Of a DNA stretch of 64,000 bases, positions 841-38,307 are shown in pieces (position 1 is the first letter of the stretch; the number at the start of each line of letters is the position of its first letter). The stretch is taken from the NCBI GenBank assembly GCA_963798485.1, contig CAWCTR010000021.1:192001-256000 (forward strand), written 5' to 3'. Under the pieces are notes generated by a model that ran no database searches, was not told the origin of the DNA, and worked only from the letters and a program-made list of their open reading frames with translations. The position numbers and the translations under genes were made by a program. This DNA comes from an uncultured delta proteobacterium. GTDB lineage: Bacteria > Desulfobacterota > Desulfomonilia > UBA1062.

Positions 841-845
841 CTGAG

Positions 846-1479: not shown

Positions 1480-1634
1480 ACTTTCATAATAGGAAATCCA
1501 TACGAGATTAGGTAAATGGACTATAGCTATCAGTATTTTTAACAGGGGCTATCAAAAGGCGGGAAATTAGGGTGGGAAATTAGGGTCAGAGACGATTTTT
1601 CAGAGGTAAATGGAATAGATTTATTTTCTGAATG

Positions 1635-1727: not shown

Positions 1728-1746
1728 ACCATAATTCGAGGCTAAG

Positions 1747-2100: not shown

Positions 2101-2187
2101 TGCCTCACCATGTCATTCATTTTATAACAAAGATAGTAACACTCTGATCAAGGCTTCTGTTATAATATCCTAACATAGGAGGCTATC

Positions 2188-2469
2188 ATGCAATGGTCGG
2201 AAATACGCAAGGCTTATCCCAATCAGTGGCTTGTTGTGGAAGCCTTGCAGGCTCACACAACCCCTGATAACCGTCGGCTTCTCGATAAGATTGCCGTTGT
2301 CGAACATTGCAATGACGGTAGCGCTGCAATGGATAGTTACCGCCGTATTCACCAACAATATCCAGCCCGTGAGTTTTATTTTGTCCATACAAGCCGGGAA
2401 GAACTCGATATACGTGAACAGCAATGGTTAGGTATTCGGAGAAGCCATGCACGTACCGTTGAAGGATAA
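2188..2469 (+). CDS. hypothetical protein (MxWxEIRxxYPxQW type)
   Basis: AGGAGG RBS; overlaps the next ORF. Confidence 0.75.
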   Translation: MQWSEIRKAYPNQWLVVEALQAHTTPDNRRLLDKIAVVEHCNDGSAAMDSYRRIHQQYPAREFYFVHTSREELDIREQQWLGIRRSHARTVEG

Positions 2470-2535
2470 CCTCCCTTTCACTACGGTTACTATTTCTTAC
2501 AAGGGAGATACCATTGATATACCCAAGATTCTATT
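2447..2535 (+). pseudogene. truncated retropepsin-like aspartyl protease N-terminus
   Basis: MHVPLKDNLPFTTVTISYKGDTIDIPKILL stops resembling the family just before the expected DTG motif. Confidence 0.4.
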
Positions 2536-2678
2536 GACAGGCTGGAAACAAACCAGATCTCGTATACGAGTGATAATAGCTAAACGGCCCGACAAACGAA
2601 ATCAGGGGACCGGGGCTAGCTCCCCTACGTTGATTATGGTCGTCCAGTATCACTTCAAAGGAACCTCCCCAAAAAGAA

Positions 2679-2717
2679 TTGACATCGCACGTTAATGTGA
2701 TTACAATGTGATTACAT
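2679..2717 (+). promoter_or_regulatory. sigma70 promoter with overlapping TA operator
   Basis: TTGACA (2679-2684), 17 nt, TACAAT (2702-2707); tandem ATGTGATTACA quasi-palindromes overlap the -10. Confidence 0.75.
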
Positions 2718-2734
2718 CGGGAGGTGTCCAAACC

Positions 2735-2992
2735 ATGAGATCAAGAATCGTGAAAATCGGCAATTCCCAGGGTATACGCCTTCCAAAGCCCCTCATCGAC
2801 CAAACAGGCCTCAGGGAAGAGGTGGAGATTCTCGTGGAGGGGAACAGGCTGATCATCGCCCCGGTGGGCCGTCCTCGGGCAAGCTGGCCCGCCTCTTTCC
2901 AGAAGATGGCGAGCATGGGAGAGGATGCCCTGCTCGATGGTGATGTCCAGGTCTCTACCGCGTGGGATGAGGATGAATGGGAATGGAAATAA
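2735..2992 (+). CDS. mazE: AbrB/MazE-family antitoxin
   Basis: IVKIGNSQGIRLPK motif; acidic W-rich tail (WDEDEWEW); GGAGG RBS. Confidence 0.9.
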   Translation: MRSRIVKIGNSQGIRLPKPLIDQTGLREEVEILVEGNRLIIAPVGRPRASWPASFQKMASMGEDALLDGDVQVSTAWDEDEWEWK

Positions 2993-3306
2993 ACCGTTTC
3001 GATGTCTTTCTCGTGAATCCGGACCCGACAGTAGGTCATGAGATCAAGAAAACCCGGCCATGCCTGATTATCTCGCCTGACGAGATGAACCATCACATCC
3101 GGACAGTGATCATAGCGCCCATGACAACAAAGGGGCGACCCTACCCCACCAGGGTTCCCTGTAAATTCAAGGACAAATCCGGGTTGATCGTTCTGGATCA
3201 GATCAGGACGGTTGATTCGGCCCGCCTGGTGAGAAAGGTCGGCAGGATCAGCAGGAAAACAGCATCACAAGTCCTTGCCGTTCTGAATGAGATGTTCGCG
3301 GAATAA
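2983..3306 (+). CDS. mazF: PemK/MazF-family endoribonuclease toxin
   Basis: DPTVGHEIKKTRPCLIISP and DQIRTVD motifs; overlaps the antitoxin. Confidence 0.92.
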   Translation: MEINRFDVFLVNPDPTVGHEIKKTRPCLIISPDEMNHHIRTVIIAPMTTKGRPYPTRVPCKFKDKSGLIVLDQIRTVDSARLVRKVGRISRKTASQVLAVLNEMFAE

Positions 3307-3339
3307 AACCCCGTCCGGCGCACATGCAGTCAAACCTCC

Positions 3340-3436
3340 ATGGGGGCGCACATCCGATACGTGCCGTATTGGCTAGGCCCCTGATGTGTCTCTTTGTCGT
3401 GGCAACGGATTTGTCAGCTATAAGAACACCTCCTTT
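3340..3436 (-). pseudogene. decayed duplicate of the 5' end of the Hsp20 gene
   Basis: Aligns with 7031-7127 (GTGGCAACGGATTTGTCAGC identical); ATG changed to ATA. Confidence 0.75.
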
Positions 3437-3494
3437 GTGGTATACTGGAGATCTCTGTTTGACAGACTGAGCTGGTTGTTTGTGTGATCGAAGA

Positions 3495-3899
3495 TCATTT
3501 AGCCGGTGATGCCTTGCAGTCATTACCCTCATGGCTCCACGATGTGATTATTCCGTCTTGATCCAGAACAAAACTGGTTCTGCACCATAAGATCTTTTTA
3601 TAAATATCCGGGGTATCGATGTATTTGTCAGGAGATATGTATTCATGCCCATGATACTCTCCAGGCAGGTTTAGATTCGGCTCCCCGACGTTTTCTTCCA
3701 CGACACGGGACCTGCTGTATTCAATTACGGTTCTCCCATCCGGAAGGTTATAGCTTCTATTAGGTTGTCCGAAGAACGATACCAGGTCATCTTCATGAGA
3801 ACCGATAAGGGCATTCAACGCCTTTTCATAGTTCCTGGTCGTTGCACACCCTGATAAGGCAATGATGATGATGAGAATTATACTCGACCATACCTTCAT
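3495..3899 (-). CDS. putative lipoprotein
   Basis: Signal peptide with lipobox LSGC; FGQP...W..GNDC pattern. Confidence 0.8.
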   Translation of the reverse strand: MKVWSSIILIIIIALSGCATTRNYEKALNALIGSHEDDLVSFFGQPNRSYNLPDGRTVIEYSRSRVVEENVGEPNLNLPGEYHGHEYISPDKYIDTPDIYKKILWCRTSFVLDQDGIITSWSHEGNDCKASPAK

Positions 3900-4321
3900 G
3901 TGTCCTCGTCCTTTCCGGCTTACATTATTATTAACATATGGTTGTGCCCGCCTTTGTCAAGGGGCTGCATAACCCATGTGGGAATATCCAGTGCAAAGCA
4001 CCTGTGTTGCATTATGCCGTATTCGTCTTAATATACATACACTGGAGGAAAAAGGAAAAGGTTATGGAAAGCATTAATGTCCAACAGCCTCATATCGGGC
4101 ATATCAGAAAAAAATATTTCTCACTCTATACCGTTTGCATTATGGACATCGAAAGAAAATAGCAGAGCCTGATCTTGAACTGCTACCCGCCCCGCCGTTT
4201 TATCATGACGATAAAGCAAGGTCCGGCGGGACTTTGTACACCATCGACCTGAAGGTATGAATTGTATTTTTGAAAGATAAAAAGTGGAAATGATTATTTT
4301 CTGTTCGTAAAATTGCTCGGC

Positions 4322-4436
4322 GCATAGCAAGCGCATCCGAACGTGCGCTGCCGCCCGCGCTAAAGTTTGTGATCTTTCATAATTCAGATCTCTTTGTGTA
4401 ATGAACATACCTGGCCGGTGATTCGTCGTGTTCGCC
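4322..4436 (+). other. degenerate attC site
   Basis: GCATAGC ... GGCCGGTGATTCG tcgt GTTCGCC directly before the GGCT gene. Confidence 0.4.
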
Positions 4437-4447
4437 TGGAGATTGTG

Positions 4448-4873
4448 ATGGACCCTCATGAAAAAGAATTTGTTTTTGTTTACGGTACCCTCAGGCGTGA
4501 TATGAATGGTGGAATGTATCACCTTCTGGCGAAGTACGGAAATTTTGTGGATGAGGCCACATATCAAGGCAGGCTGTACAAAGTGGCCGACTACCCGGGT
4601 GTGGTCCCCTCGGATGACCCCAAAGACGCAGTCCATGGCGAAGTCTATCAACTTCACCATGCAGATGCCGTTCTTCCATGTCTTGATGAGTATGAGAGGT
4701 GCGGACCCGGCTTTCCGGAACCTACAGAGTACATACGTGTCAAGCAGGAGGTCTCTCTCAGGAACGGCAATGCGGTTTCCGCGTGGGTCTACCTATACAA
4801 TCGCCCCACAGAAGCACTCGAATTGATTGAGTCGGGAGATTTCTCGCTGGTCCGGAGCCCAGGGGCAAAATAG
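4448..4873 (+). CDS. gamma-glutamylcyclotransferase (AIG2-like) family protein
   Basis: VFVYGTLR, YPG, VHGEVY, LDEYE and AWVYLYN motifs. Confidence 0.92.
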   Translation: MDPHEKEFVFVYGTLRRDMNGGMYHLLAKYGNFVDEATYQGRLYKVADYPGVVPSDDPKDAVHGEVYQLHHADAVLPCLDEYERCGPGFPEPTEYIRVKQEVSLRNGNAVSAWVYLYNRPTEALELIESGDFSLVRSPGAK

Positions 4874-4930
4874 CCGAAGAACTCATCAAGCGGTCGCAGA
4901 AGAATGCGCCGCGTACACAGGTCATTGTAC
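4873..4930 (+). other. degenerate short attC site
   Basis: GCCGAAG..TCAAGCGGtCGCA gaagaa TGCGCCGCgT..ATTGTAC; ATTGTACAG is 8/9 complementary to CTGTAGAAT at the end of the next gene (5599-5607). Confidence 0.55.
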
Positions 4931-4965
4931 AGAATAATTAAGATGATGCATGAAAGGAGAAACTT

Positions 4966-5604
4966 ATGTTTGAAAACATCATCCATGAACACAGTGCGGC
5001 CCTTGATGTAATTATAAAATCGCGACGCTCGGTAAGGGTATTCAGTCCAACCCCGCCAAGCCGGGAGGCTATTGAGGCAATAATCCAAGCAGGACTGTTG
5101 GCTCCCTTTGCATCACTTGCGGTTGCCGGAAAACCGGACTTTAGAAAGGTTGTAGTTATTCGAGGCCCTTCATCAGTTATGGACGCCGCAGGGGATATTC
5201 TCAAAAATAAAATGGCAAGGTTTGCCGATGAACTTGAAAAGAAGGTGGGACCTGTTCCTTTTATTCAGAATCTGAAACGGATCGGACAACAAGGTGTGCC
5301 CGGCGTCGGTAACGCACCATACTATATCATTGTCGGAGAAAGAAAAGGAATGCCTCCGGTTGCTCCGCATTCGCTTTGCTACTGCCTGCAGAATATGTGG
5401 CTGAAAGCAACATCACTCAGCATAGGTCTTCAACTTGTCAGTGCAACCATGCAGATGGATAGCGACCCTGATTTTTGCAGGCTTTTAGATATTCCCTGTG
5501 GGGAATATGCGCTGGATGGGTGCGCGCTGGGATATCCGGCCGATAGCTATCAACCTTCTTTTGTCGAATATCCTACACTGGGAAAATCAGTTAAATGGCT
5601 GTAG
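4966..5604 (+). CDS. nitroreductase family protein
   Basis: IIKSRRSVRVF, AP, QNMWLKATSLSIG and LGYP motifs. Confidence 0.9.
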   Translation: MFENIIHEHSAALDVIIKSRRSVRVFSPTPPSREAIEAIIQAGLLAPFASLAVAGKPDFRKVVVIRGPSSVMDAAGDILKNKMARFADELEKKVGPVPFIQNLKRIGQQGVPGVGNAPYYIIVGERKGMPPVAPHSLCYCLQNMWLKATSLSIGLQLVSATMQMDSDPDFCRLLDIPCGEYALDGCALGYPADSYQPSFVEYPTLGKSVKWL

Positions 5605-5695
5605 AATCTAAAGATGATGGTGTCGCTATGTAACGCGACAGGAGACAGGGAGGGACCGATTGCCTCAATCCACAAATAGAACAGGGCTTCACACC

Positions 5696-6529
5696 ATGTC
5701 CGATCATAAAGCGAGTCGTACGGCGCTGGGAACCGCATACCTGAGGGCCGCGCATCAGCTGCTTGACGCATACCCGCACATCCTTGAAGACCCGGTTGCA
5801 TTAACGCTCCTCGGACCGGGGGCGTTGCAGCGGATCAACGATACGACGGATCAGTACCAAACGCCCGAAAGGCTTGCATTGCGCGCGCATGTGGTTCTGC
5901 GTTCGCGGTTCGCCGAGGACCGGCTTGCCGCTGCGGTTCATCGCGGAGTCACGCAGTATGTCATCCTCGGGGCAGGCTTCGATACCTTTGCACTCAGGCA
6001 GCCTGACTGGGCACAGGCATTGAAAATCCTCGAGGTCGACCATCCGGGGACACAGGCTATGAAACGCTCCCATCTTGCCGCAGCAGGCCTCACAATGCCT
6101 GAGAACGCAGACTTCGCCACCATCGACTTTGAACACGAATCGTTGCGTGACGGCCTCCTGCGGTATCATGCCTCCCTGGACGAACCGACCTTCTTCTCGT
6201 GGCTGGGTGTGACCATGTACCTCAAGGAAGACGCCATCGATGCCGTGCTCCGGTCTGTCGCAGCCTTTCCGGCGGGCAGCGAGATCGTGTTTACCTTCGT
6301 GACGCCACCAAGTGACTCCCCTTCGCCCCTGGCCCAGCGCACCGCAAGCCTCGGCGAACCCTGGGTGAGTTACTTCGAGCCTGATGCCATCGAAGCAAAG
6401 CTGCATGGCAACGGCTTTTCCAAGGTGGAGTTTCTTTCGCCCGCAGAGGCTGAGGCTAGGTACTTCCGGCAGCGCCCGGCAGACCTCCCGGTGCCGAAGA
6501 GAACGAACATTCTCAGCGCGGTGCTGTAA
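5696..6529 (+). CDS. SAM-dependent methyltransferase (leucine carboxyl methyltransferase-like family)
   Basis: RSRFAED, QYVILGAGFDT, EVDHP and WLGVTMYL motifs. Confidence 0.92.
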   Translation: MSDHKASRTALGTAYLRAAHQLLDAYPHILEDPVALTLLGPGALQRINDTTDQYQTPERLALRAHVVLRSRFAEDRLAAAVHRGVTQYVILGAGFDTFALRQPDWAQALKILEVDHPGTQAMKRSHLAAAGLTMPENADFATIDFEHESLRDGLLRYHASLDEPTFFSWLGVTMYLKEDAIDAVLRSVAAFPAGSEIVFTFVTPPSDSPSPLAQRTASLGEPWVSYFEPDAIEAKLHGNGFSKVEFLSPAEAEARYFRQRPADLPVPKRTNILSAVL

Positions 6530-6544
6530 TGTACGCCAACGAAC

Positions 6545-6574
6545 AAAAAACGGAGAGGCTTTTTAAGCCTCTCC
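6545..6574 (-). terminator. intrinsic terminator for hsp20 (possibly bidirectional)
   Basis: GGAGAGGCT/AGCCTCTCC stem followed by a T-run on the minus strand. Confidence 0.7.
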
Positions 6575-6605
6575 TGGAATTGCTGTCATTTCCCCCTCAC
6601 CTGAC

Positions 6606-7112
6606 TCATTGGCTCTTGACCGCTATCTTCCTGTGCGAACGCTTTTCTCCCGCGAGTTTGGGCAGGGTGATGTTGAGCACCCCTTTCTTGAAGACGGCCT
6701 CTACCTTGTCCACATCCACGTCCTCGATAGTGAGGACCCGGGTGAAAGATCCGTACGAGCGTTCCGAGCAGTAGTAGTTGTCACCCCTGCTCTCGGTCTC
6801 GTCCTTCTTCACACCCGAGATGGTGATGCTGTCGCTGCTCAGGCTGATGTCGATATCCTTTTCATCAAGACCGGGGAGCTCGGCATTCACATGGATGGCC
6901 TTTTCGTCCTCGGTCATGTCGATCCGCGGGCTGAAGGTTTCCATGTCGTCCATCAGACTTGATAATGGTCTGAGGGAGAAACCTGTGAAAAAATCGTCAA
7001 AGAGCCGGCCTATCCCGCCCCTAAACAGATCAAGGGGCTGCACGTCCGTCACGTGCCGTATGGGCAGGCCCCTGGTGTGTCCCTTTGCCGTGGCAACGGA
7101 TTTGTCAGCCAT
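6606..7112 (-). CDS. Hsp20/alpha-crystallin small heat shock protein
   Basis: AELPG, ERSYGSFTR and FKKGVLNITLPK motifs. Confidence 0.95.
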   Translation of the reverse strand: MADKSVATAKGHTRGLPIRHVTDVQPLDLFRGGIGRLFDDFFTGFSLRPLSSLMDDMETFSPRIDMTEDEKAIHVNAELPGLDEKDIDISLSSDSITISGVKKDETESRGDNYYCSERSYGSFTRVLTIEDVDVDKVEAVFKKGVLNITLPKLAGEKRSHRKIAVKSQ

Positions 7113-7361
7113 ACAAACACCTCCTTTACGTCTCGTGTTGCAAACTCATTGAACTGAGTTCCGATGCTTTTATAGGGTCACTTTGCAGGAATTCAAGGTG
7201 TGGTAAGGTATTGATAGTACAATATAGAGTGACCTTGGTGGCACGGAAGCTAAGGCTTAATTATTTTAGCAGCATGTTGCTTTGCTCTTAATATCTCTTA
7301 ATAATTGTTATGTTGCTCACACAGAGCGAATAAGGAATTGCAGCATCAAGAGGAGGAAGCA

Positions 7362-7601
7362 ATGAAAAATGAAGACAGAAAACGGATCGAAGAGATTATG
7401 GCGGGAATGAAATGCCCGAAGAACTTCAAGTGTGCGAAAGGAGGCTTCGAACATTTGTGCAAGGCAACAGATATCGGACTGGAGAATTATCTCGACTGCC
7501 TTGAGGAGAAACCGGCTAGTTGTTCCTTTGCTATGGCATATGGTCTCAGGCATTTTTGTCAATGCCCGTTGAGAGTCTACCTCGCCAAGAAACTTAAATA
7601 A
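7362..7601 (+). CDS. small Cys-rich hypothetical protein
   Basis: AGGAGG RBS; CPKNFKC...C...C...C...CQCPLR. Confidence 0.75.
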   Translation: MKNEDRKRIEEIMAGMKCPKNFKCAKGGFEHLCKATDIGLENYLDCLEEKPASCSFAMAYGLRHFCQCPLRVYLAKKLK

Positions 7602-7624
7602 AAAGAAATCCGGATGGAGTGCAA

Positions 7625-7807
7625 CTATTGCCTCTTCTTATAAAGATTCAACCCCACCTTGATTTCCTCATGACCTTCAATGGCAACATTCCCTTCAGTC
7701 GAAGCAATGATGATGGTCTTCCCCGATGATGACGGTCCGAATTCTTTAGTAAGATCAACCTTAATTGTCAGGATATTGCCTTCAGCCTTCATCTCTACGT
7801 TTTTCAT
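7625..7807 (-). CDS. small conserved hypothetical protein
   Basis: MKNVEM...GPSSSGKTIIIASTEGN; GAGGA RBS. Confidence 0.8.
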   Translation of the reverse strand: MKNVEMKAEGNILTIKVDLTKEFGPSSSGKTIIIASTEGNVAIEGHEEIKVGLNLYKKRQ

Positions 7808-7885
7808 GCCGGTCTTCCTCGTGAGATTGGAATGTCAGCAGATTAGCACTTATAGCTGATGTGTCAATAAATATATCTATCCACA

Positions 7886-9331
7886 TCATGCCCTTTCTGC
7901 ATAATCTCCATAGGCATCGACGTTTTGGCTTTGTCGGGTCTTGTAATACACCCTGCCGGACAATTCCTCCTTCATCAACTGGTAGTTGTATTGGCTATTT
8001 GAAACAGCGAGCGCCCTGACTGCCTCTTCAGGGGATTCGAACAGAGGGATTTTATAATTACTCCGGTAGGCTATGGTTTTATCCGCTGCGTTCGGGGTGT
8101 AGATGGCCGCCGGTTTGCCGTACTGATGGCATTTCTTAACGAGTTCCATTATGGCCTCGATCACCATGGGGTGCCACAGGCTCGGTACGGGCAGGAGCCC
8201 GTCTACCTCATCGGATGAAAGCAGGATGTCGAAGATCTCCATGAAGGTCTGCATGGACAGGGCGGGCCCAAGATCAATGGGGTTGGTCACATTGAAGATC
8301 CGGCCGGTCCTTGATAGTCTTTCCTGGGTCTTAAGGGAAAGCTTGGCCATCTCGAGTCCTGACTGGATAAGCAGATCCGCAGTGATGCCGCCGAAGGCGC
8401 CCGAGTTTGTAAACATCGCTATTCTCTTACCCTTCAGAGGCGGCATATGGGTGAATATCTTGGGCAGTGAATGTAGCTCGGAAATGGATTTCACACGGAT
8501 GACGCCGGCCTGTTTGCAGGCGTTCTCGAAGATGAGGTCATTGTTCGCCATACCGGCGGTGTGAGATTGTGCGGCGCGCACACCCTCCGATGTCCTGCCC
8601 ACCTTGAAGACAAGTATGGGTTTGGCCGTCTTCCTCGCAACCTCGATGAACTTCCTGCCATATTTGATGTTCTCCATATACAGGCAGATGACCTTGGTCT
8701 TTTCATCGGTATTGAAATATTCGATCATGTCCGACTCGTCGATGTCGCTCTTGTTGCCTATACTCACGATCTTTGCGGCCTTGACCACATCGCTCATAAA
8801 AGATTCCAGCACGATCACGACGATCCCGCCGCTCTGGATAATATACGATATCTCGCCTGATTCCTGGATAAAGGTGTCGAAGTTGTCCTTCTGGACACCA
8901 TAGAAGCAGCAGAACTTATTCTCTGTATTGAGAACCCCCAGACAGTTGGGACCCATGATGCGCATACCATAGGCATGCCTGATCTCATCAATCTCACGCT
9001 GGAGGGTCTTGCCCATCTCTCCACCCTCGGAGAATCCTGAGCTTTCGATGACAATATGCCTGATCCCCTTTTCCCCGCATTGTTTGACAAATCCCGGTAC
9101 AACCTGGGCCGGGGTAATAATCACGGCAAGGTCGGGATGACCCGGAATATCCATGATAGACGTGTAACCGGCGCAGCCGTAGACGTCTTCACCCTTTCTG
9201 TTTACTGCATAGACCGGCGGACTAAATGGTGAGAATTCATTGAGCGACCTGCATATCGTTGCACCAAGATTGAACGGCGAATTTGATGCCCCGATTACTA
9301 CAACAGATGACGGGTTGAAAAACGTATTCAT
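7886..9331 (-). CDS. acyl-CoA synthetase (NDP-forming) alpha-like, CoA-binding protein
   Basis: FFNPSSVVVIGAS, GPNCLG, SIGNKSD, SHTAGMA (phospho-His) and NPIDL motifs. Confidence 0.92.
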   Translation of the reverse strand: MNTFFNPSSVVVIGASNSPFNLGATICRSLNEFSPFSPPVYAVNRKGEDVYGCAGYTSIMDIPGHPDLAVIITPAQVVPGFVKQCGEKGIRHIVIESSGFSEGGEMGKTLQREIDEIRHAYGMRIMGPNCLGVLNTENKFCCFYGVQKDNFDTFIQESGEISYIIQSGGIVVIVLESFMSDVVKAAKIVSIGNKSDIDESDMIEYFNTDEKTKVICLYMENIKYGRKFIEVARKTAKPILVFKVGRTSEGVRAAQSHTAGMANNDLIFENACKQAGVIRVKSISELHSLPKIFTHMPPLKGKRIAMFTNSGAFGGITADLLIQSGLEMAKLSLKTQERLSRTGRIFNVTNPIDLGPALSMQTFMEIFDILLSSDEVDGLLPVPSLWHPMVIEAIMELVKKCHQYGKPAAIYTPNAADKTIAYRSNYKIPLFESPEEAVRALAVSNSQYNYQLMKEELSGRVYYKTRQSQNVDAYGDYAERA

Positions 9332-22165: not shown

Positions 22166-22216
22166 GTGTTACCCATGTACCCAGAATATTGTGTTACCTA
22201 TGTCCCCGTTCGCTCA
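22166..22216. mobile_element. IS481-like terminal remnant interrupting the attC of the VOC cassette
   Basis: Tandem GTGTTACCCATGTACCC / GTGTTACCTATGTCCCC repeats of the kind seen at IS481 ends; no transposase nearby. Confidence 0.45.
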
Positions 22217-22837: not shown

Positions 22838-23623
22838 CTAAAAAAATTGAAGTTCCCCAAACTTTTTCTCAATAGTAATTGAACGATAACCATGATGATA
22901 GAAATCCACACGTACTGATTTGTTAAAGAGATCACCTCTGTTAAAATAAATATCGTGGTCCATAAAATATTCGATCGCCATTACAATAATGGTGTCACCT
23001 GGAAAGAATTTTATTGTGGGACAATGTCTCTCTGATATCAATCGGAAAAATGCAAAATCACGTGTGCTTCGACTAGGCACAAAATACATGTTATCTTGCG
23101 GGTTTTTTATGACTATCGCGGGCATCTGGAGATCAATATGGAAATTACCTAAAGGAACTGTTCCGCGATTAGTTAAGGATATTTCTAGATGATAAGTATG
23201 TATTTCCGAACGTTGTTTAACTATCCTATACGCTAAATCAATCTCTGTTGTAGTTTCTATTGGCTCATTTGATGTATTACCTTCAATTTCCATTAGGGCC
23301 GCACTTTCAGCTCTTTGTTTCCATTCTTGTAATAATTCAACTGTGTACCGCATTGGATCATTATCAATAAGCTTTGCGCAATTCTGACAAAGCCAAATGC
23401 CATTCTCAATTGATTGGCGTTGTTCAGATGTAATGGTTGCATCATAACGAGGACCGCCAGGTGATGCTGCAGTAATGTGAGCTGCAACACCGATATTAAC
23501 TATAAGTGAAGAGTCTGATCGCGGCCCCGTAGTAAGTTTTTTACAGGTGGGATTTGAGCACCTGACGCCTACACGTTTAGCTAAAACATCTATTGTCGGT
23601 TTTGAAAAGTCGTCACGTTCCAT
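22838..23623 (-). CDS. HNH-like zinc-binding nuclease domain protein, gene cassette
   Basis: RCSNPTC...AAHITAASPGGPRYD...NGIWLCQNCAKLID; cassette starts GTTGGGCATT (23639) and ends with complementary AATGCCCAAC; AT-rich. Confidence 0.85.
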   Translation of the reverse strand: MERDDFSKPTIDVLAKRVGVRCSNPTCKKLTTGPRSDSSLIVNIGVAAHITAASPGGPRYDATITSEQRQSIENGIWLCQNCAKLIDNDPMRYTVELLQEWKQRAESAALMEIEGNTSNEPIETTTEIDLAYRIVKQRSEIHTYHLEISLTNRGTVPLGNFHIDLQMPAIVIKNPQDNMYFVPSRSTRDFAFFRLISERHCPTIKFFPGDTIIVMAIEYFMDHDIYFNRGDLFNKSVRVDFYHHGYRSITIEKKFGELQFF

Positions 23624-23632
23624 ATTATTAAT

Positions 23633-23764
23633 GCCCAACGTATAGCGTTTTATCCATTGTCCCGCCGAAATTATAGCAGGAGGAGATCAGGGGAGCAATG
23701 GTCATAATTTTAGGATGATATATGATTACTAAGCTGCGGGATGATGGATAAAAGGCCGTTGGAC
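23633..23764 (-). other. attC-like hairpin (non-canonical spacing) at the end of the IS91-family element
   Basis: GTCCAAC ggcc TTTTATCCATCATCCCGC ... GCGGGACAATGGATAAAA cgctatac GTTGGGC; 16/18 stem. Confidence 0.65.
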
Positions 23765-24042
23765 TGTGCCGCTCCGGGCATACTTATTATCTATGGGCAT
23801 TGTATCCGGATACTTCGCTAAAGAATAGTGGTTGATGATCTTGTTTGTGAAGGAGACGGCGTCTCTCGATATGGTAATCGGTCGAAGATGTTGATCTTGA
23901 GACTGGATGTGAACCGTGAAAGTGAAGCATTTTGGTGGTATCTCAGACCTCAAGGCGTACCACTCCTGCACCCCAGTTGAACAAAGAACCTTGGGGCTGT
24001 CAGGAGCATGCAGTGTATGCGTATGTGTTTTTTGTTTGCTCA

Positions 24043-25317
24043 TCACGGAGAATTCAAGATCAATGGTTGATTGGGGCCAGCCTTAGTAACGCCCATTGCC
24101 TGGAAAGGAATTTCGGAGATCCGCTTCATGGTGCCTTTCCGGCAGGAAGGGCACTGGGTGATATCCATGCCGGTAAGCTGGAGCATCAATTCCTGAGTTG
24201 ATTTATCAGCCGGACTCGAAGACTGAGAAGTGCAGTTGAGAAGCACTCTGATCCTGTTCAAGTCCTGTTTTTTCGACCTGTTGGCCAGAAAGCCGTAATG
24301 ACGGATGCGCATGAAGCCATCGGGAAGGACATGGAGCAGGAACCGTCGAATGAATTCCACGGCATCAAGCGTCATGATCTTGCGGGTGTTCCGGTCCTTT
24401 CGGTCCTGGTAGTGGAACATGACCTTGTCGTCATGCATCGCAATGATGCGATGGTTGGAGATGGCCACCCGGTGGGTGTACCGGCCGAGGTAATCGAGCA
24501 CCTGTTCAGGTCCGGCAAAGGGTTTCTTGGAGTAGACCACCCATTCTTGCTCTTTAAGTTTCCGGATCAGCTTCTTGAACCCGGATGGAACGCCGAGGTG
24601 AACGGAACTGCCGGGGAAGCTCAGTTCGCTGGAACGATAGGATCTCTCCAGATAATCGATGAACTTGCCTCTGAAGACGCGGGAGAGTGCCCTGACCGGA
24701 AAGAGGAAATGCCGGCGAGAAGCTATCCAGCGTTCTCTGTCGAAGGAGAGTGCACCGGCCGGGATTACGCAATGCAGATGGTAATGATCCAGGAGCACTT
24801 GGCTCCAGGTATGGAGGATCAGGATGAAGCCCATCTTGCCGCCCAGAGAGTTCCGTGGATTATGGCCGAACTCAGCTAGGGTCTCGGATACCGACTTGAA
24901 GAGAATGGAGTAGATCTCCTTCTTGTTGCACTGGGCGATGGGGTTGATATCATGAGGCAGGGTGAACACCGTGTGGAAGTACCCTACCGGAATGAGCTCC
25001 TCAATCCGTGCTTCGAGCCACCTCGCCTTGGCCATAGTCTGGCACTTGGGGCAGTGCCTGTTGCGGCAAGAGTTGTAGAACGGTCGTTCATAACCGCACC
25101 TGTCGCAACGCTCGATATGTCCCCCCTGGAACTCGGTACGACAGCGGATGATGGCGGATATGACTCTTCTGTGGGCAAGGGGAGTCGGATAGGCCGCCTG
25201 GTAGTCACTGCCATGGACACGGAAGATATCTGCCACCTCGCAACTCTGTACAGGATGCTTCTGGGTACAGGCTTGCGTGATTGGGGCTAACATGACTGGC
25301 CTCCCTCTAGATGGCAT
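24043..25317 (-). CDS. IS91-family (Y2 HUH) transposase
   Basis: NSCRNRHCPKCQ zinc finger, YFHTVFTLP, HYHLHC (HUH), YLGRYTHR (YxxxY) and RIRHYGFL motifs. Confidence 0.95.
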   Translation of the reverse strand: MPSRGRPVMLAPITQACTQKHPVQSCEVADIFRVHGSDYQAAYPTPLAHRRVISAIIRCRTEFQGGHIERCDRCGYERPFYNSCRNRHCPKCQTMAKARWLEARIEELIPVGYFHTVFTLPHDINPIAQCNKKEIYSILFKSVSETLAEFGHNPRNSLGGKMGFILILHTWSQVLLDHYHLHCVIPAGALSFDRERWIASRRHFLFPVRALSRVFRGKFIDYLERSYRSSELSFPGSSVHLGVPSGFKKLIRKLKEQEWVVYSKKPFAGPEQVLDYLGRYTHRVAISNHRIIAMHDDKVMFHYQDRKDRNTRKIMTLDAVEFIRRFLLHVLPDGFMRIRHYGFLANRSKKQDLNRIRVLLNCTSQSSSPADKSTQELMLQLTGMDITQCPSCRKGTMKRISEIPFQAMGVTKAGPNQPLILNSP

Positions 25318-26147
25318 GCCTCAATGTCCAGAGGGCTCCTGACGGAAGAGAGTCCGGTGCGCGTAAGATGCAGGTAACGCGCGGTGGTATTGATGTAGCT
25401 ATGTCCCATCAGTTCCTGGATAGTACGAAGGTTGACACCGGACTCCAGTAGGTGCGTGGCGAAGCAATGCCGCAGGGTATGAATACCCCGGCCTCCGGTG
25501 ATTCCTGCCTTTCTCCTGGCTTTGTCATAGATTCGCTGTGCAGTGGTAATGTGCATGGTGTTCTTGCGGTCACGACCAGAAAACAGCCATACTGTGGGGC
25601 GGTACATCTTCATAAAGACCTGCATCTCATCCCAAAGTCGCTGGGAGAGGATCGTGTACCGATCCTTGTTGCCTTTTGCCTGCTCAATGCGGATGGTCAT
25701 GCGCGATCCGTCGATATGCTTCGGCTTCAAGCGCACCACTTCGCTGACTCGCAAGCCTGCTGAGTAAGTCGTCATGAGCAGGAGGCGATGCTTGGGGTTG
25801 GCGGTACAGTCAAAGAGACGCTCTATGGCTTCCCTGCTCATAATCTCGGGCAACTGGGACTTGTTCTTACGGGGCGGTATGCTTAGGCGTATAGATTCAT
25901 AGCCAAGAGTCTCCGAGTAGAAAAACCGGAAGGCGGACACCGCTAAGTTGCATGAGCTCCAGGCAAGCTTCCTTTCTTTCATCAGGTAAAGCAGATAATC
26001 CTGTACTTCCGTATTCGTGATCTTGTCGGGTGACCTCCCAAAATACTTCGCAAGCGCGGCAACAGCCATAACATAAGACTTCTGAGTCCGCTGTGAAAAC
26101 CTCCTGAGCTGCATCTCACGAATCATCTTCTCCCGTAGTTCCGTCAT
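25287..26147 (-). CDS. tyrosine recombinase with N-terminal SAM-like domain
   Basis: GLRVSE, KGNKDR, HTLRHCFATHLLE, MGH and TARY catalytic set. Confidence 0.95.
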   Translation of the reverse strand: MTELREKMIREMQLRRFSQRTQKSYVMAVAALAKYFGRSPDKITNTEVQDYLLYLMKERKLAWSSCNLAVSAFRFFYSETLGYESIRLSIPPRKNKSQLPEIMSREAIERLFDCTANPKHRLLLMTTYSAGLRVSEVVRLKPKHIDGSRMTIRIEQAKGNKDRYTILSQRLWDEMQVFMKMYRPTVWLFSGRDRKNTMHITTAQRIYDKARRKAGITGGRGIHTLRHCFATHLLESGVNLRTIQELMGHSYINTTARYLHLTRTGLSSVRSPLDIEACHLEGGQSC

Positions 26148-26290
26148 GCCATACCTCCTTGTTTTTGTGGTTTAGTGAACAGGGAGATATGATACCGTAA
26201 CTATAGATTATCGAAGGGTATTAATCGGGTGAGCTGTTGCTTAAGGACAATTTGATCAGCAAATTCAAGAGACTCCGCGACAGCGGCTTA

Positions 26291-26377
26291 GTTCAACAAT
26301 TACTATACTGCACTTTTGCAGTATATCACCATTATTATTCGTTGCACAATTGCAGTATATCCGGATATTGAGTGCAA
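26291..26377 (-). other. attI-like structured recombination site, copy 2
   Basis: Inverted copy of 364-437; TATACTGCA aaag TGCAGTATA palindrome, then gtaatt GTTGAAC; heads the minus-strand cassette array. Confidence 0.6.
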
Positions 26378-26625
26378 GGCATTATGATGTTATAAATATA
26401 TAAATAACCGATTTACAGCTCTCGCAAATTATAAAAAAGCCCGCTCGACCGCATTACCTAAGAACGCGCATACTCCGTCCCCTAAGGGTGGATTCATGTG
26501 CGTGTCCCTGGCCCTCTTTCATGTTTCATCGTGCGGATAATCATTCTATTTCATGTTGTGGCGGCAACCATGCCGTTTGAATGGATATTAGTGGAAAGTA
26601 AAAATATAGGTCAAAGGAATCAAAT

Positions 26626-26660
26626 GAGATTGCCACGTTGTCGCCGGCACCTCGCAATGA
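26626..26660. repeat. degenerate REP-like dispersed repeat
   Basis: GAGATTGCCACG...CCTCGCAATGA resembles a common intergenic repeat type; single copy in window. Confidence 0.3.
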
Positions 26661-26693
26661 ATCTGAAATAATACACTTTCACGCAACTTGGTA

Positions 26694-27815
26694 CTAGTCC
26701 AGCTTCTTATGGAATCTGCCGACAGCCCCGGCAAAGAGGACAAGCCCCAGGATCACCAGCGCGAGATACTGCGGCCAGAGGACATAGAACCCTACGCCCT
26801 TCAGAAAGATACCCCTGATGATCACGAGGAAAAAACGGAGCGGGTTTAAATATGTAAGCCACTGGACAACCACAGGCATGTTGGCAATGGGGAATATAAA
26901 GCCCGAGAGCATGAAGAAAGGCAGGATGAAAAAGAAAGTCGTCATCATAGCCTGCTGCTGGGTGGATGAGACCGTCGAGATGAAGAGGCCTACCCCCAGA
27001 GTGCTCAGGAGGAAAAGGCAGGCAGCAAAAAACAGGAGCACCAGACTGCCTGCAATAGGGATATTGAACCAGATCTTGGCGATGATAGTGACTACGATCA
27101 TTTGGACAATCGAGATCACGATGTACGGCAAGGTCTTTCCTATGATGAGTTCGGTGGCCTTTAGCGGGGTGACGATGAGCTGCTCCATGGTGCCTTGCTC
27201 CCTTTCCTTGATGACTGCTATGGATGTCAAAAGCAGAGATATAAGCATGATTACAAAGGCCACGATTCCCGGGATAAAGAAGTTTTGGCTGTCCAGATTC
27301 GGGTTATACCAAGTTCTTATCCTGGCATCCACATGACCGTAATCCATGCGCCGGCCTTTGAGTTCTCGAAGCATGTTCGTATTGAATGCATCCAGCACAA
27401 GCACGGTGTAGCCGATCCTGATGGATGCCATGTTGCTTATGCTCCCATCGACAAGGATCTCAACAGATGCGCTCTGGCCCTTCCTGATGCGGCTCCCCAT
27501 ATCAGGCGCGATCTTTATACCGATATCAACCTTACCCTTCAGGAGTAATTGTTCCAATTCTTTTTGATCCTGCGGGTAGTCTGTGATCCTGAAAATCCTG
27601 TTGCCGTAAATGGACTCAATGAATTTTCTGCTCTCACCGGTATGGGACTGGTCAATGACTGCCACCCGGATGTTCCTTATGTCATAGTTGACAACATAGC
27701 CGAAGAGAAGGAGCATGAGTATGGGGGCAATGACCAGCACGTGCCTGTTCCTCTTGTCTCTAAAGAGTACGATGAACTCCTTGCGCACGAGCTCCCTGAT
27801 GCGCAGCCAGCTCAC
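26694..27815 (-). CDS. ABC-2 type permease (YbhR-like)
   Basis: WYNPNL, KEREQGTMEQL and LSGFIFP motifs. Confidence 0.93.
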   Translation of the reverse strand: MSWLRIRELVRKEFIVLFRDKRNRHVLVIAPILMLLLFGYVVNYDIRNIRVAVIDQSHTGESRKFIESIYGNRIFRITDYPQDQKELEQLLLKGKVDIGIKIAPDMGSRIRKGQSASVEILVDGSISNMASIRIGYTVLVLDAFNTNMLRELKGRRMDYGHVDARIRTWYNPNLDSQNFFIPGIVAFVIMLISLLLTSIAVIKEREQGTMEQLIVTPLKATELIIGKTLPYIVISIVQMIVVTIIAKIWFNIPIAGSLVLLFFAACLFLLSTLGVGLFISTVSSTQQQAMMTTFFFILPFFMLSGFIFPIANMPVVVQWLTYLNPLRFFLVIIRGIFLKGVGFYVLWPQYLALVILGLVLFAGAVGRFHKKLD

Positions 27816-34492: not shown

Positions 34493-34936
34493 ATTGCCTT
34501 ATTCCCCCCTTCAAGATAAGTTATTCATCTCATAATGCCCATAAAACCTGCCTGCTTTTTAAACACCACTCATTTTTCAAGGTTTCCAAAACGTAATGAA
34601 GTCTCGTTGGAATGCAACACCAGATAAGGAAACCCCTTCTTACAAAAGAAATTGTCTTGCAAAAATCAGGCCTTTAGAATGAACCATGTCAATAGTCTCA
34701 TTTCATCATATGAAAGAAATGTGATAATAGTAACTTATGATAAAATCCAGGGCTGCAAAGATTCCTCGCTATTTTTAAACAGAATAGAAAATCTATTCTC
34801 TTTTTATGAAAACATTTTCTTCATGACGGTAAACATATGAGATTTTCCTTCATATATTCTTATGGCTCAAATTTGGTGTCAGGACACTCTGAACTAACCG
34901 GCGGTATCAGGTGAATGACAGACTTCTCCTCTATTA

Positions 34937-36670
34937 CTACTCACCTTCCATATATCTCTCAATGATATTTACTCCTAGACCTGTGCGTGAGCTTAATTTA
35001 ATTTTAAATCTTTTATCAAAAAGAAATTTCTTTACCCTGTCTATTTCATCCTTCTTATAATTAAAAGAATCTTCATTTCTTACAGAAATATCCACCCAGA
35101 TAAATCCATCTGAATAACCAATATCATCTAGCCTTGCGGCTGTTTCTTCGTAATTTCTACCAACCCTACCCCATTCTTGAATTGTGTCGCAAAATATAAG
35201 TATAAAAGATAAGGGATCTTCCTTGAAAGTTAAGGATTCTAAAATTTTCTTATGGGAAAAAGCACTATCAGCCCTTCCAGAAAAATGCCCCCAGATTCCT
35301 TCATCATGTAAAGCAATAGCCCTTGAAGCTTTTAGAAGGGCCTCCTTGTTCAATCCCTTGGGACGTTGTTTATCGAATAATTTTAATAACGATAACGCAC
35401 CTAAAAGACCATGATTTTTTTCATCGATGATTTTTTCATAAAAGAATAACAATGCAATTCTATCAATGGGGAGGTTATCAAATGTATCGCATAATTCCTT
35501 TGTTTTAAACATGTAATCTTCTTTTACATAGCATTCATCAAGGTTTAATCTTGAAGGATTTTTATCAAGAAACAAGGTATTTTTAAAAAATGTAGCTATC
35601 CATTCATTATAGTTTTGAATATTATAATTATAATCATGATAGGTCGAAGCCAAAAGCCACATATTTTCTAGTGAATTACCAAACTTTTTCTGGAAAGAAG
35701 ATATCGATTTATCAGTATATAATTTGTCTATTATGTAGCATCCTAAAAGAAATACATGAAGTTGATGCAAAAAATGATCCCTATATCTTGGATTGAGCAG
35801 TAGTACAGGTTCAAAATCTTTTTGAAATTCTGGATATTCTAAGCCGATTTTATTCCAAAGTTTTTTTATCAATTCTAATGCAATATCATAATCGTCTTCA
35901 ATTCTGGTTCTATATTCAGCAGCCAATTGTTGTAAATTATCAGTGTATTCTAGATGTTGGATTTCAGCAATCCGATCTATAAGCGTTAAACTAATATTTC
36001 TTCCTTCGGTCCTGCCAACAATTTCTCTTCTTTTATATTCTGGTTCAGGATAGTAAATAAGATATTTATTTGTTTCTTCAATATGAAGATCTAATTTTTC
36101 GAACAGCCTATGCTGTATATCTGGTATTAATTCCTTTGGAAGAGCCTTTTTATGTTCTTTGAGGTATTCTTGAAGTGGTAATATTACCTTGCTGAACTCT
36201 TCAAAGGAAATATCAATGAGTGGAATTGACGATATGATTTCTTCTACGGTCTTTTCTCCAACCTTAAAAAGACCGACTTTATAAGATTGACACAACTCTT
36301 TAAATCTATCGAATTCATTATCTTCACTTAAATAATCAGGATATGCCCAATACACTTTTGCTTTGGGAAAGTAGTATTGAAAGAATGTTGCTGAAGATGC
36401 ATCATTAAGCTCAATACCTCCTTTCACCAATGTACGTGGTATATGCAAATGATAGAAGAAGTCATTACTTTTTATTGTACGGCTATTGATAACATCAACT
36501 ACTACTTCATTAATAGATTCACTTTTCTTTGTAACTCCCCTCTTTCTTGCGTATACAGGCACTCGTGCAGGAAGGAACTTATCTGAGTATACCTCTGTCT
36601 CATATCCCTCTTTTTTGAAGTAGGCGGACAACCAGTTTGTCATTTGTTTCACTGTATATGTGCTTTTCAT
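34937..36670 (-). CDS. HD-superfamily phosphohydrolase domain protein with unassigned N-terminal domain
   Basis: RDHFLH, YHD, NHG, LHD and CDTIQEWGR motifs in the C-terminal half. Confidence 0.75.
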   Translation of the reverse strand: MKSTYTVKQMTNWLSAYFKKEGYETEVYSDKFLPARVPVYARKRGVTKKSESINEVVVDVINSRTIKSNDFFYHLHIPRTLVKGGIELNDASSATFFQYYFPKAKVYWAYPDYLSEDNEFDRFKELCQSYKVGLFKVGEKTVEEIISSIPLIDISFEEFSKVILPLQEYLKEHKKALPKELIPDIQHRLFEKLDLHIEETNKYLIYYPEPEYKRREIVGRTEGRNISLTLIDRIAEIQHLEYTDNLQQLAAEYRTRIEDDYDIALELIKKLWNKIGLEYPEFQKDFEPVLLLNPRYRDHFLHQLHVFLLGCYIIDKLYTDKSISSFQKKFGNSLENMWLLASTYHDYNYNIQNYNEWIATFFKNTLFLDKNPSRLNLDECYVKEDYMFKTKELCDTFDNLPIDRIALLFFYEKIIDEKNHGLLGALSLLKLFDKQRPKGLNKEALLKASRAIALHDEGIWGHFSGRADSAFSHKKILESLTFKEDPLSFILIFCDTIQEWGRVGRNYEETAARLDDIGYSDGFIWVDISVRNEDSFNYKKDEIDRVKKFLFDKRFKIKLSSRTGLGVNIIERYMEGE

Positions 36671-36680
36671 AAGATATTCC

Positions 36681-37174
36681 TCATCTATTTACCGTAAGCA
36701 ACTTCTCAATTTCTTCATATCCCTTATCTATATTATTAACTATAATTGTTTTATCTTTGAGTTCTTTCTTAATAATCCCAAGTTCTGTCAGACCCATTGT
36801 TCACGATATAAGATATTTTTCATAACTATCTTAAAGATTATTGGTATGTTTGATAATGCATAAGGCTTAATAACACCTTTTGGATCAGACAAATCAACTA
36901 CCCCTCTAGAATACCAGGCCCATGCTCTCCTCAACCATAAGATAATATGTATAGAGGGTGGCAGAAGATAAATGATCTTGTCATACTGTTCAGGATTTCT
37001 ATCAAGGCCATGCACATCTTCAACCAATATAGCCTTTGAAGAAGACTGAGGAATGTCTTCATGGGCATAGTAGTCCATATCGATTTGTAAAACCTTTCCA
37101 GGGAGTTTATCAGCTATTTTTCCACGTAAAGTGCTTTTCCCTATGTTTCCAATACCAGTGATTAGAATTTTCAT
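36681..37174 (-). pseudogene. P-loop nucleotide-kinase-like protein, apparent single-base frameshift near 36791
   Basis: MKILITGIGNIGKST Walker A; shifted frame continues LTELGIIKK...LLTVNR* to 36681, at the RBS of the next gene. Confidence 0.65.
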
Positions 37175-37191
37175 GATACCACAATGTTTAG

Positions 37192-38307
37192 TTATACCCT
37201 TTCATATACTCTAAGCGTTTCCTCTAGATATCGATCATATCCATAGCCAATCTTGATGTTGCATCTTGATGGGCCACTCCATTTATCGATTAATTCGGTG
37301 ATTTCCTTCTGTGTTATTTTCATATCATCAAGATCCACTCTTACAATCTGATTCTCTGGAATACCCTGTGTAAACTGCTCATATTCATTTACATCCAAAG
37401 TCAGGTCCGTGATTATCGTAAGGCCCGACCAGAGCGCTTCACACACGATGTTGGAAAAATCTTTGATAGGATTATCTCTTTCAAAATAAAGAAGGTAATC
37501 AATGTTTCCTAATAGAGCGGGCATATGGGCAGGATGAACAAAATTATTATGCTTATAATATCTTAAACCATTTCCCTCGACGAACTTGGCAAACTCAGAA
37601 AAACCACTTCCCTGTCCAACTATTTTCAATGCATGTCGATTTTTGATTTCCGAGAAGATCTCAATGATTTTGTCGAGACTTTTATATTTCCAATGGTAAT
37701 TTATTTTGCCAATGTAGGCAAAAGCAGGCACCTCATGTACATTGATTGCTGGTTTAAAGAACTTTTCATCGGGGATATATCTTGGGAGTGTAACTATATT
37801 TGAGTTGATAGCTTCAAAAATATTTCTGTTCTTGTCATCAGTAATAATTACTGCCGCATTTCGGATTACCTCCTTTAGGAGATTACTGAAAACACCCTGC
37901 TTCAGAAATTTAACTATATCACTACCCCCGTGCCTCAATACATAGGGAAGACCGGTTATATTGGATAGCAGATAGCCGACAATACCATATGGTATGAGGT
38001 AATTCGTATCTATTAAATCAATTTGGTTGTCGCAAATTATTTCCAGTGCCTTGTCCAAGAGTTTAGGCACGTAAAGAGCTGAGTAGGGAATGTGCCAGGG
38101 TGTATCTGGATCGATATAGTGAACTATCAGATTTGGAGGCAGTTCAGGGATTTGATCATTGATATAATATTCCTGTTCGACGCAATTTGCATTAGTGACT
38201 ACATGAACCGTAGCACCTTTTTCAGCAAACCCCTTTGCCATCCAGAAAGTCTGGGCTGATATTCCTCCCTGAGTAGGCGGGAACTTGCTGATCATACATA
38301 CGTTCAT
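37192..38307 (-). CDS. GT4-like glycosyltransferase
   Basis: SKFPPTQGGIS, YLIPYG, HGGSD and EALWSG motifs; GT-B pattern. Confidence 0.85.
   Translation of the reverse strand: MNVCMISKFPPTQGGISAQTFWMAKGFAEKGATVHVVTNANCVEQEYYINDQIPELPPNLIVHYIDPDTPWHIPYSALYVPKLLDKALEIICDNQIDLIDTNYLIPYGIVGYLLSNITGLPYVLRHGGSDIVKFLKQGVFSNLLKEVIRNAAVIITDDKNRNIFEAINSNIVTLPRYIPDEKFFKPAINVHEVPAFAYIGKINYHWKYKSLDKIIEIFSEIKNRHALKIVGQGSGFSEFAKFVEGNGLRYYKHNNFVHPAHMPALLGNIDYLLYFERDNPIKDFSNIVCEALWSGLTIITDLTLDVNEYEQFTQGIPENQIVRVDLDDMKITQKEITELIDKWSGPSRCNIKIGYGYDRYLEETLRVYERV

Follow-up and report, generated by a model that had tools for sequence, protein, structure and literature searches.

An IS91-subgroup element with an integron-integrase-like recombinase and cassette-like ends in an uncultured delta proteobacterium

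Integrons are a main route by which resistance and accessory genes are gathered, and IS91 and ISCR elements are a main route by which such genes are moved. Members of the IS91 family that carry an integrase gene upstream are listed in ISfinder. Here, we analyzed an element with such a gene pair in a 64,000-nucleotide (nt) stretch of DNA from an uncultured delta proteobacterium (Desulfobacterota; assembly GCA_963798485.1, contig CAWCTR010000021.1, positions 192,001 to 256,000 of the forward strand). This whole stretch is called the window, and positions are counted from its first letter unless another contig is named. The element is a 2.66-kb unit on the minus strand, which runs from the heptamer GTTGAAC through a tyrosine recombinase gene and an IS91/Y2 transposase gene to a 132-nt hairpin, and a preliminary description had presented it as packaged like an integron cassette. 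Our results show that this unit is an intact and recently active mobile element. The features that resemble a cassette appear to correspond to the element's own ends, with the left (G)TTGAAC and its palindrome as terIS and the right hairpin as oriIS. We give a probability of about 0.55 to the reading that this is an autonomous element of an IS91 subgroup, whose transposase makes the joint N/TT (the slash marks the cut) and whose recombinase acts on the same palindrome.

For IS91, IS801 and IS1294, the available text of PMC13181058 describes a target tetranucleotide (CTTG, GTTC or GTCC) whose second base is T and which adjoins oriIS on the downstream side of tnpA. The same text gives oriIS one or two subterminal palindromes and terIS one palindrome by the cleavage tetranucleotide, and it presents the single-stranded circle of the family as functional. 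The features of the window element are, from its left to its right end:

26297-26291, minus strand: left junction heptamer GTTGAAC, read in the sequence
26290-26273, minus strand: TAAGCCGC-TGTC-GCGGAG, a terIS-like palindrome just inside the left end, which repeats the right-end GCGGCACA in inverted orientation
26147-25287, minus strand: open reading frame of a tyrosine recombinase, 286 amino acids (aa) (PF00589, 113 bits; Phage_int_SAM_4, 75 bits)
25317-24043, minus strand: open reading frame of an IS91-family HUH-Y2 transposase, 424 aa (PF04986, 209 bits; PF14319, 106 bits; NF033538, 440 bits for a cut-off of 125)
24046-23729, minus strand: open frame of 105 aa, matching no Pfam or NCBIfam family
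23772-23765, minus strand: right inverted repeat GCGGCACA, then GTCC; inverted copy of the left end
23764-23633, minus strand: attC-like or oriIS-like imperfect palindrome of 132 nt, from GTCCAAC (23764-23758) to GTTGGGC (23639-23633)
23678-23670, minus strand: extended -10 element TGCTATAAT in the hairpin loop, read directly, facing outward to the downstream gene

The HUH-Y2 transposase with its N-terminal zinc-binding domain places the element in the IS91 family, and the recombinase gene, which immediately precedes tnpA in the same orientation, places it in the subgroup with an integron-like recombinase. The start of the transposase gene overlaps the stop of the recombinase gene. Transposase residues H178, H180 and H182 as well as Y276 and Y280 are invariant in 11 relatives. 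The recombinase presents its catalytic residues (R133, K158, H223, R226, H249 and Y258), and an alignment with two IntI proteins revealed the C-terminal SPLD tail that is common to IntI. With these motifs intact, both proteins look active. The best NCBIfam match of the recombinase is the integron integrase model TIGR02249 with 185.9 bits, below the cut-off of 265, and a XerA-type model nearly ties with it (185.4 bits). The TIGR02249 match is made of two stretches that skip model positions 181-242, where the IntI-specific insertion is located. In integron integrases, this insertion reads the flipped-out bases of folded attC sites. By the TIGR02249 match, by the alignment and by the accessible part of the classification in 10.1101/542381, which sets IS91-borne recombinases beside IntI with the insertion missing, the recombinase of the window is nearest to IntI yet without the IntI-specific insertion. 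A recombinase tree had nine open forks and did not settle the position relative to IntI (five of its long rows are probably open reading frames in a wrong frame), and nothing was drawn from it.

The hairpin at the right end is ordered as GTCCAAC, a 2-nt spacer, an arm, a loop, the second arm, CTATAC (23645-23640) and GTT (23639-23637), followed by the flank GGGC. The GTCC found after GCGGCACA is both a tetranucleotide of the IS91-family type and the first four bases of the R''-like box. By the definition in the available text of PMC13181058, this is an oriIS end, located downstream of tnpA by a tetranucleotide with T at position 2. The left end (GTTG-AAC-TAAGCCGC-TGTC-GCGG, 26297-26273) is likewise a terIS end with one palindrome by its tetranucleotide, at which cleavage would be predicted. 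Among the relatives compared, TTGAAC forms the conserved first six bases of the element, and the G of the left GTTGAAC is probably derived from the target. On enterobacterial plasmids, three of three IS1294-like copies end in ...TTTCCTATAC/GT and then diverge. Their ends read ...CCTATAC/GTGA, GTCA and GTGC, as compared to ...GCTATAC/GTTG in the window and ...GCTATAC/GTTA in a second copy of the element on contig C5 of the same genome. Because the hairpin end matches the canonical oriIS of the IS91 family, the resemblance to a cassette may stem from the transposase system and not from the recombinase.

Folded as single-stranded DNA, the 132-nt hairpin reaches -19.1 kcal/mol (z = -2.08; 5 of 200 shuffles were equally good), and its 21-nt arms are 86% complementary. 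The support from the comparison with shuffles is modest, and the argument that the hairpin is real goes beyond this score, because the hairpin is found letter for letter in the second copy and its design is conserved across relatives. An Rfam scan of positions 23500-26800 returned no meaningful match. Approximately 270 bases without a supported gene separate the transposase gene from the right-end motif. A homologue of the 105-aa frame in this region was sought by tblastn in 30 loci and only its own copy was recovered; this frame is probably not a gene but spacer sequence that separates the transposase gene from the right end. The extended -10 element in the loop may act as a promoter for the downstream gene; a consensus promoter scan did not list TGCTATAAT, whose -35 is weak. 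Loop and 3' arm (TGCTATAAT, with CTATAC or CTATAT followed by GTT) also occur alone on two other contigs of the genome (C14 173560-173860 and C22 47750-48000), before genes without element genes. These solo copies resemble remnants of right ends or promoter modules that arose from such ends.

The second copy shares with the window an exact block of 2659 bp (window 26295..23637) with 100% identity, between unrelated flanks. The junctions are as follows, the slash marking the limit of the block:

Window copy, minus strand: left aattgt/TGAAC, right ACGTT/gggc
C5 copy: left gtatg/TGAAC, right ACGTT/agac

The hairpin is located inside this shared block, which indicates that it travels with the genes. 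Both right junctions lie in GTT, followed by GGGC in the window and by AGAC on C5, and both fit GTTRRRY. As cassette-boundary sites, the window presents GTTGAAC and GTTGGGC, and C5 presents GTGAAC (one T short) and GTTAGAC. The start at GTTGAAC, the pairing of a recombinase with an IS91 transposase and the hairpin end from GTCCAAC to GTTGGGC, all given in the preliminary description, are therefore confirmed by the sequence, the profile matches and the shared block. Its further proposal that the element could mobilize downstream cassettes is not supported, because the identity of the two copies ends right after GTT. Contigs carrying the element at 90-99% identity were found in four of the four public metagenome runs compared, three of them from studies other than the likely source's, and the cover starts at 23633 and ends near 26300. 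Shares from 17 further runs were left out of the evidence. We searched relatives of the same family for an uninterrupted site of the window copy; only the transporter genes were conserved and no empty site was found.

Relatives of the transposase with 34-54% identity were detected in 44 of the 401 genomes sampled from the phylum (own genome counted), and at least 605 matching stretches were found in the species collection, across many phyla. Of 30 loci, 25 have the recombinase gene immediately ahead of the transposase gene, and the other five correspond to three loci cut by contig ends and two decayed copies. The recombinase gene is also upstream in 77 of the 78 loci that were fetched, the one exception being a locus without flank. 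The relatives share a common end design. On the left, they present TTGAAC and nAAGCCGC-N3-5-GCGG; on the right, they present GCGGyTyn, GTyCAAC, a short spacer, an arm, a loop, an arm, a CTATAC-like motif and NTT. In 36 of 41 rows, the 15 bases that precede the hairpin repeat the left end in inverted orientation, so that the stem would cross the joint in the joined form. In 36 of 43 right ends, the motif is followed by two arms that pair over 10 nt or more with no more than one mismatch, compared to 48 of 1000 random anchors. These 36 right ends contain 29 distinct arm 10-mers, which indicates that the structure is kept while the sequence changes. The left heptamer was also found to co-vary with the right box (GGGGAAC with GTTCCCC, GAAGAAC with GTTCTTC, TTAGAAC with GTTCTAA, and GATGGAC with GTCCATC). 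Open reading frames just after the right junction were uninformative (9 of 23 versus 417 of 1000 controls). At the right end of one relative (L075), the last ~21 bases (arm, CTATAC and GTT) are present twice in tandem.

Of 35 left ends, 29 have TT ahead of GAAC, and the base that precedes this TT is variable (G in 14, T in 6, A in 5, and C in 4). An automatic parse of 35 right ends showed that they finish in GTT (24), ATT (7) or CTT (4). RRRY follows NTT in 10 of 34 parsed right ends, part of which were cut wrongly by the parsing pattern, versus about 2 expected by chance. Tandem copies of the element were identified in three loci (L088, L089 and L102). The tandem joint reads ...CTAAACG/TTGAAC in L102 and ...CTATACA/TTGAAC in L088, where the leftmost flank base is C and the rightmost end keeps A before TTGACG. 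The L088 tandem and its outer flank bases suggest that the unit is TTGAAC...CTATAC-N and that the target in this locus was C/TTG. The cut position appears to be that of the integron crossover (G/TT), and the (G)TTR target of the element appears to overlap the integron core site.

A relative without recombinase (31% identical) was found in a class 1 integron with the gene order aac(6')-Ib, blaIMP-6, aadA2, element, and qacEdelta1:

L152 (IncN plasmid), 2394-3866: IS91-like element without recombinase, placed like a cassette after aadA2 and before the 3' conserved segment

This relative is flanked directly by ...GGCTTAACTCCGGCGTT and AGATGCACTAAG... and lies precisely at the GTT of the aadA2 attC, and a plasmid without the element, which serves as an empty-site control, presents an uninterrupted aadA2 attC and 3' conserved segment. 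It starts with TTGAAC, ends with GTTCAAC-hairpin-...GCG and shows GCGTT at both junctions. The 11 plasmid records in which it was detected (E. coli, Klebsiella and Phytobacter) are all 100% identical and therefore represent one event. Either the transposase or IntI1 could have made this insertion. Since the junctions are the same in this recombinase-less relative, a cassette-like junction does not need the element's own recombinase. This result and the matching ends of the IS1294-like oriIS shifted our reading toward the transposase.

Under the preferred reading, the Y2 transposase would nick the oriIS hairpin and release a single-stranded circle, in which the ends would join as ...CTATAC-N/TTGAAC... 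with the hairpin stem extending over the joint. The circle would then insert at N/TTR. Because the core site GTTRRRY includes this target, the element could reach the integron crossover point (attI beside intI, or attC boxes), and it could also reach other GTT sites. The recombinase would probably act on the same palindrome, where it would resolve tandem or double-stranded circular forms or provide a second integration route, and the outward extended -10 in the loop would transcribe the downstream gene.

Alternatively, the element's own IntI-like recombinase might integrate the joined attC-like ends at GTTRRRY (G/TT), the transposase only supplying single-stranded circles. We regard this as unlikely, but several observations speak for it. 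The gene is kept in nearly all loci (77 of 78) with complete catalytic residues and the IntI-like SPLD tail, its best NCBIfam match is the integron integrase, and the accessible part of 10.1101/542381 puts IS91-borne recombinases next to IntI; yet the IntI insertion is missing and the tree did not resolve the position of the recombinase. The ends do offer the parts of an attC-like site, with an R box (GTyCAAC/GTTGAAC), an unpaired spacer and L-box arms, an R/L box layout in which the stem extends over the joint; yet the right end is a canonical IS91 oriIS end, which needs no recombinase. RRRY is enriched in the flanks and short identities are observed at the junctions (GTTG in the window, CGTTT in L089, and GCGTT in the class 1 integron), as in site-specific recombination; yet the recombinase-less relative has the same junctions, and the one-base irregularities seen at two left junctions are unusual for tyrosine recombinases.

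The surroundings of the two copies in this genome bear on their relation to integrons. The C5 copy occupies the position of the first cassette and is oriented like one. An intact intI (331 aa; TIGR02249, 460 bits versus a cut-off of 265) lies 120 bp from this copy, and cassettes with plain attC sites follow it on the other side. The window copy, with one cassette behind it, is located 140 bp from the following feature:

26435-26516, plus strand: intI remnant made of the last ~27 bases and the conserved downstream sequence, which aligns with the intI 3' ends on contigs C5, C12 and C19

As this remnant aligns with the 3' ends of the three intI genes of the genome, the window locus is a decayed integron from which intI and attI are gone. 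The remnant is 83% identical to its C5 counterpart, as compared to 100% identity between the elements, from which it can be argued that the two copies represent two separate recent arrivals. The ~80-90 bases right after each intI stop are conserved at 78-83% (window 26435-26516, C5 13713-13794, C19 1156-1236, and C12 6463-6543), and this conservation suggests a possible functional element downstream of intI.

It has to be considered whether the two copies of this genome are true cassettes, i.e., whether the host integrase excised the unit through its attC-like hairpin and inserted it at attI, with passive shuffling. The first-position arrivals of identical elements beside differing intI sequences speak for this, and so does the C5 copy in cassette orientation. 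R'' (GTCCAAC) and R' (GTTGGGC or GTTAGAC) fit the attC consensus, and boxes and arms are both present in the hairpin. Its spacers are uneven, with 2 versus 6 nt, unlike attC sites, which are near-symmetric. The C5 left junction is one T short, the window element is preceded by a dispersed 97-bp repeat and not by attI (see below), and a 2.66-kb unit with two genes and a promoter-like element of its own is unlike usual cassettes. The same arrangement beside intI is seen in L102 in another genome, and the class 1 insertion lies exactly at the attC R'; at the level of the family, however, most relatives are away from integrons. Among five multi-copy genomes, two have a true IntI elsewhere and three have no IntI above the TIGR02249 cut-off; one of these three is a closed genome, 99% complete, whose two copies are 99.8% identical. 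Movement by an integron integrase thus does not hold for the family as a whole, and overall we find it quite improbable that the two copies of this genome are passive cassettes.

Of the 44 species-collection loci whose upstream flank extends for 1.2 kb or more, 3 have an IntI-specific match ahead of the left end. For one small gene, this frequency greatly exceeds chance, yet it is a minority, and the majority of relatives do not adjoin an integron. In L102 (a Desulfobacterales record, 350-8800), a divergent intI in two pieces ~470 bp apart is followed by two tandem elements. An intact intI in the same orientation lies ~115 bp before the left end in L057, and short 3' intI fragments are present upstream of the left end in L090 and L115. 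The second tandem element of L102 has ~1.6 kb inserted between its recombinase and transposase genes. A strict test, in which the upstream flank had to be an attC ending at the junction, was positive for 1 of 28 loci, and that one is a tandem. A looser stem test of upstream flanks revealed a weak enrichment (15 of 46 versus 83 of 500 controls). Upstream flanks are generally not attC-like. The idea of site-specific integration at integron att sites, put forward in the preliminary description, holds in part: boundaries in the GTT of GTTRRRY-like sites are found in the window, at the right end of the C5 copy and in relatives, the element stands beside intI or its remnant on C5, in the window and in L102, and a relative occupies a class 1 attC, but the majority is not by an integron and the C5 left junction is one T short. 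The comparison of homologous flanks counts in part against this idea: boundaries coincide with GTT sites, but most copies lie away from integrons (3 of 44 with IntI matches).

Several points weigh against the reading of an autonomous element joined by its transposase. GTT (up to GCGTT) is present at both junctions and, by the criterion of target-site duplication, can be assigned neither to the element nor to the target, so that the cut is not placeable to the base and the enzyme is not nameable. The left junction of the C5 copy is GTGAAC, one T short of the GTTGAAC of the window, and the left junction of L048 is off by one base and reads GTTGGAAC. The parsing errors among the 34 right ends affect the counts drawn from them. 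The universal retention of an intact IntI-like recombinase argues for an essential role, possibly integration itself, and the recombinase-less relative lies in a class 1 integron, in which IntI1 could have been responsible for its movement. The public runs, which are contigs and not reads, showed neither a circle joint nor an excision joint. Finally, the genome is a binned assembly with 6.96% contamination, and the two copies may come from different cells.

The immediate flanks of the window copy contain two further features:

26395-26299, minus strand: 97-bp repeat abutting the left end, which contains the palindrome TATACTGCA-N4-TGCAGTATA
23623-22732, minus strand: downstream cassette with an open reading frame of 261 aa (weak HNH_2) and an attC-like site GCCCAAC...GTTTAGC (22830-22732)

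The 97-bp repeat had been labeled an attI-like site. We identified at least nine copies in the genome, each before an unrelated open reading frame: window 26299-26395 and 338-443; C17 187979-188084 and 215132-215226; C7 126732-126832; C24 40120-40216 and 60687-60793; C16 1479-1523; and C13 34972-35050. The repeat holds two direct copies of ATATACTGCA, is always located 10-50 nt ahead of a different open reading frame, and is followed by GTTAGAC or GTTAGAT in two other copies. It is also multi-copy in other metagenomes (13 contigs in run X3), whose contigs diverge exactly at 26295, after the terminal GTT. The regions ahead of the genome's intI genes do not contain the repeat. This dispersed, multi-copy distribution led us to reject the attI label, and the repeat could instead be an operator or promoter module or an att-like site.

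Behind the element, the unit first named an HNH cassette does end in an attC-like site (22830-22732), but its 261-aa frame matches HNH_2 with E = 0.064 and 13.6 bits, below the cut-off of 21 bits. The cassette array fades out beyond this cassette. Two direct repeats (GTGTTACCCATGTACCC and GTGTTACCTATGTCCCC) are located at 22166-22207, between a methyltransferase-like cassette and a small open reading frame, where the array loses its attC sites. A home-made attC scan of the whole genome was not used for counts; its looser version gave 153 hits, mostly by chance, and missed known sites. This crude scan picked up ~60-nt palindromes with perfect ends (ACCCAAC...GTTGGGT), which resemble repetitive extragenic palindromic (REP) sequences and are found on many contigs (for example C21 256001-256053, C32 77938-77997, and C24 88250-88309). 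Elsewhere in the window, positions 34500-38000 have a low G+C content (0.28-0.39 versus about 0.5 around), with open reading frames at 34937-36670 and 37192-38307. This stretch is probably foreign DNA.

The subgroup joins the worlds of integrons and IS91 elements, with a recombinase nearest to the integron integrase and ends that imitate cassettes, and it may form a bridge between two classes of mobile DNA that are commonly considered apart from each other. The element is found at the integron crossover beside intI in three genomes and a relative is found likewise in a clinical class 1 integron. The outward promoter-like element that it carries could switch on the cassette behind it. We also considered a two-enzyme single-strand pathway, in which the joined ends of the transposase circle would fold like an attC and the IntI-like recombinase would integrate the folded strand at GTTRRRY. 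This possibility is highly tentative and we hold it to be rather doubtful. If it were true, these elements would be living relatives of the integron ancestor, attC sites would trace back to oriIS hairpins of the IS91 type, IntI would descend from the recombinase of the element, and single-stranded cassette substrates would be explained without conjugation or replication. The elements offer a testable handle on the purpose of the recombinase in these IS91 members and on the origin of the integron system.

Compared with the canonical members of the family (IS91, IS801, IS1294 and IS1294b), the window element has the same HUH-Y2 transposase, the same oriIS palindrome ending in CTATAC and abutting GTnn, and the same terIS with one palindrome. 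The canonical family has circular intermediates; tandem copies occur in the relatives of the window element, for which a circle itself was not observed. The window element differs by its additional IntI-like recombinase gene and its much longer hairpin. Its ends are mutually inverted, each with a GAAC/GTyC box, and are attC-like when joined. Its target is (G)TTR and not GTTC or CTTG, and the protein identity to the IS1294-like copies is about 24%. As far as the available description goes, ISShvi3 from a Shewanella integron has the same recombinase-transposase gene pair. We did not find the end design, the N/TT junction rule or the intI adjacency of such elements described in the literature searched, whose scope excluded ISfinder/TnPedia and subscription journals.

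Integron cassettes share with the element a TTRRRY start, an imperfect palindrome RYYYAAC...G/TT at the end, the first position beside intI, and a recombinase that is nearest to IntI. In contrast to cassettes, the element carries its own enzymes, spreads in genomes without IntI, has a recombinase that lacks the IntI insertion, and presents uneven spacers and a joined-end stem that runs 8 bp past the R box. The IS1111-attC group, which includes ISUnCu1, and the group IIC-attC introns are likewise mobile elements specialized on integron sites, according to the accessible text of PMC10232235 and PMC9229058, respectively. We considered ISUnCu1 as a possible IS91-like element and rejected it, as the former source places it in the IS110 family. 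These elements use a DDE-type IS110 transposase or a reverse transcriptase and insert inside attC, whereas the window element, with its Y2 transposase and tyrosine recombinase, ends in its own attC-like site and sits at a cassette boundary; neither of its flanks in the window is the interior of an attC. Finally, ISCR1 in complex class 1 integrons is another case of an IS91-related transposase that is physically tied to integrons (PMC8876359, available part). It differs from the window element in being fused to the 3' conserved segment, off the core site, and in having no recombinase.

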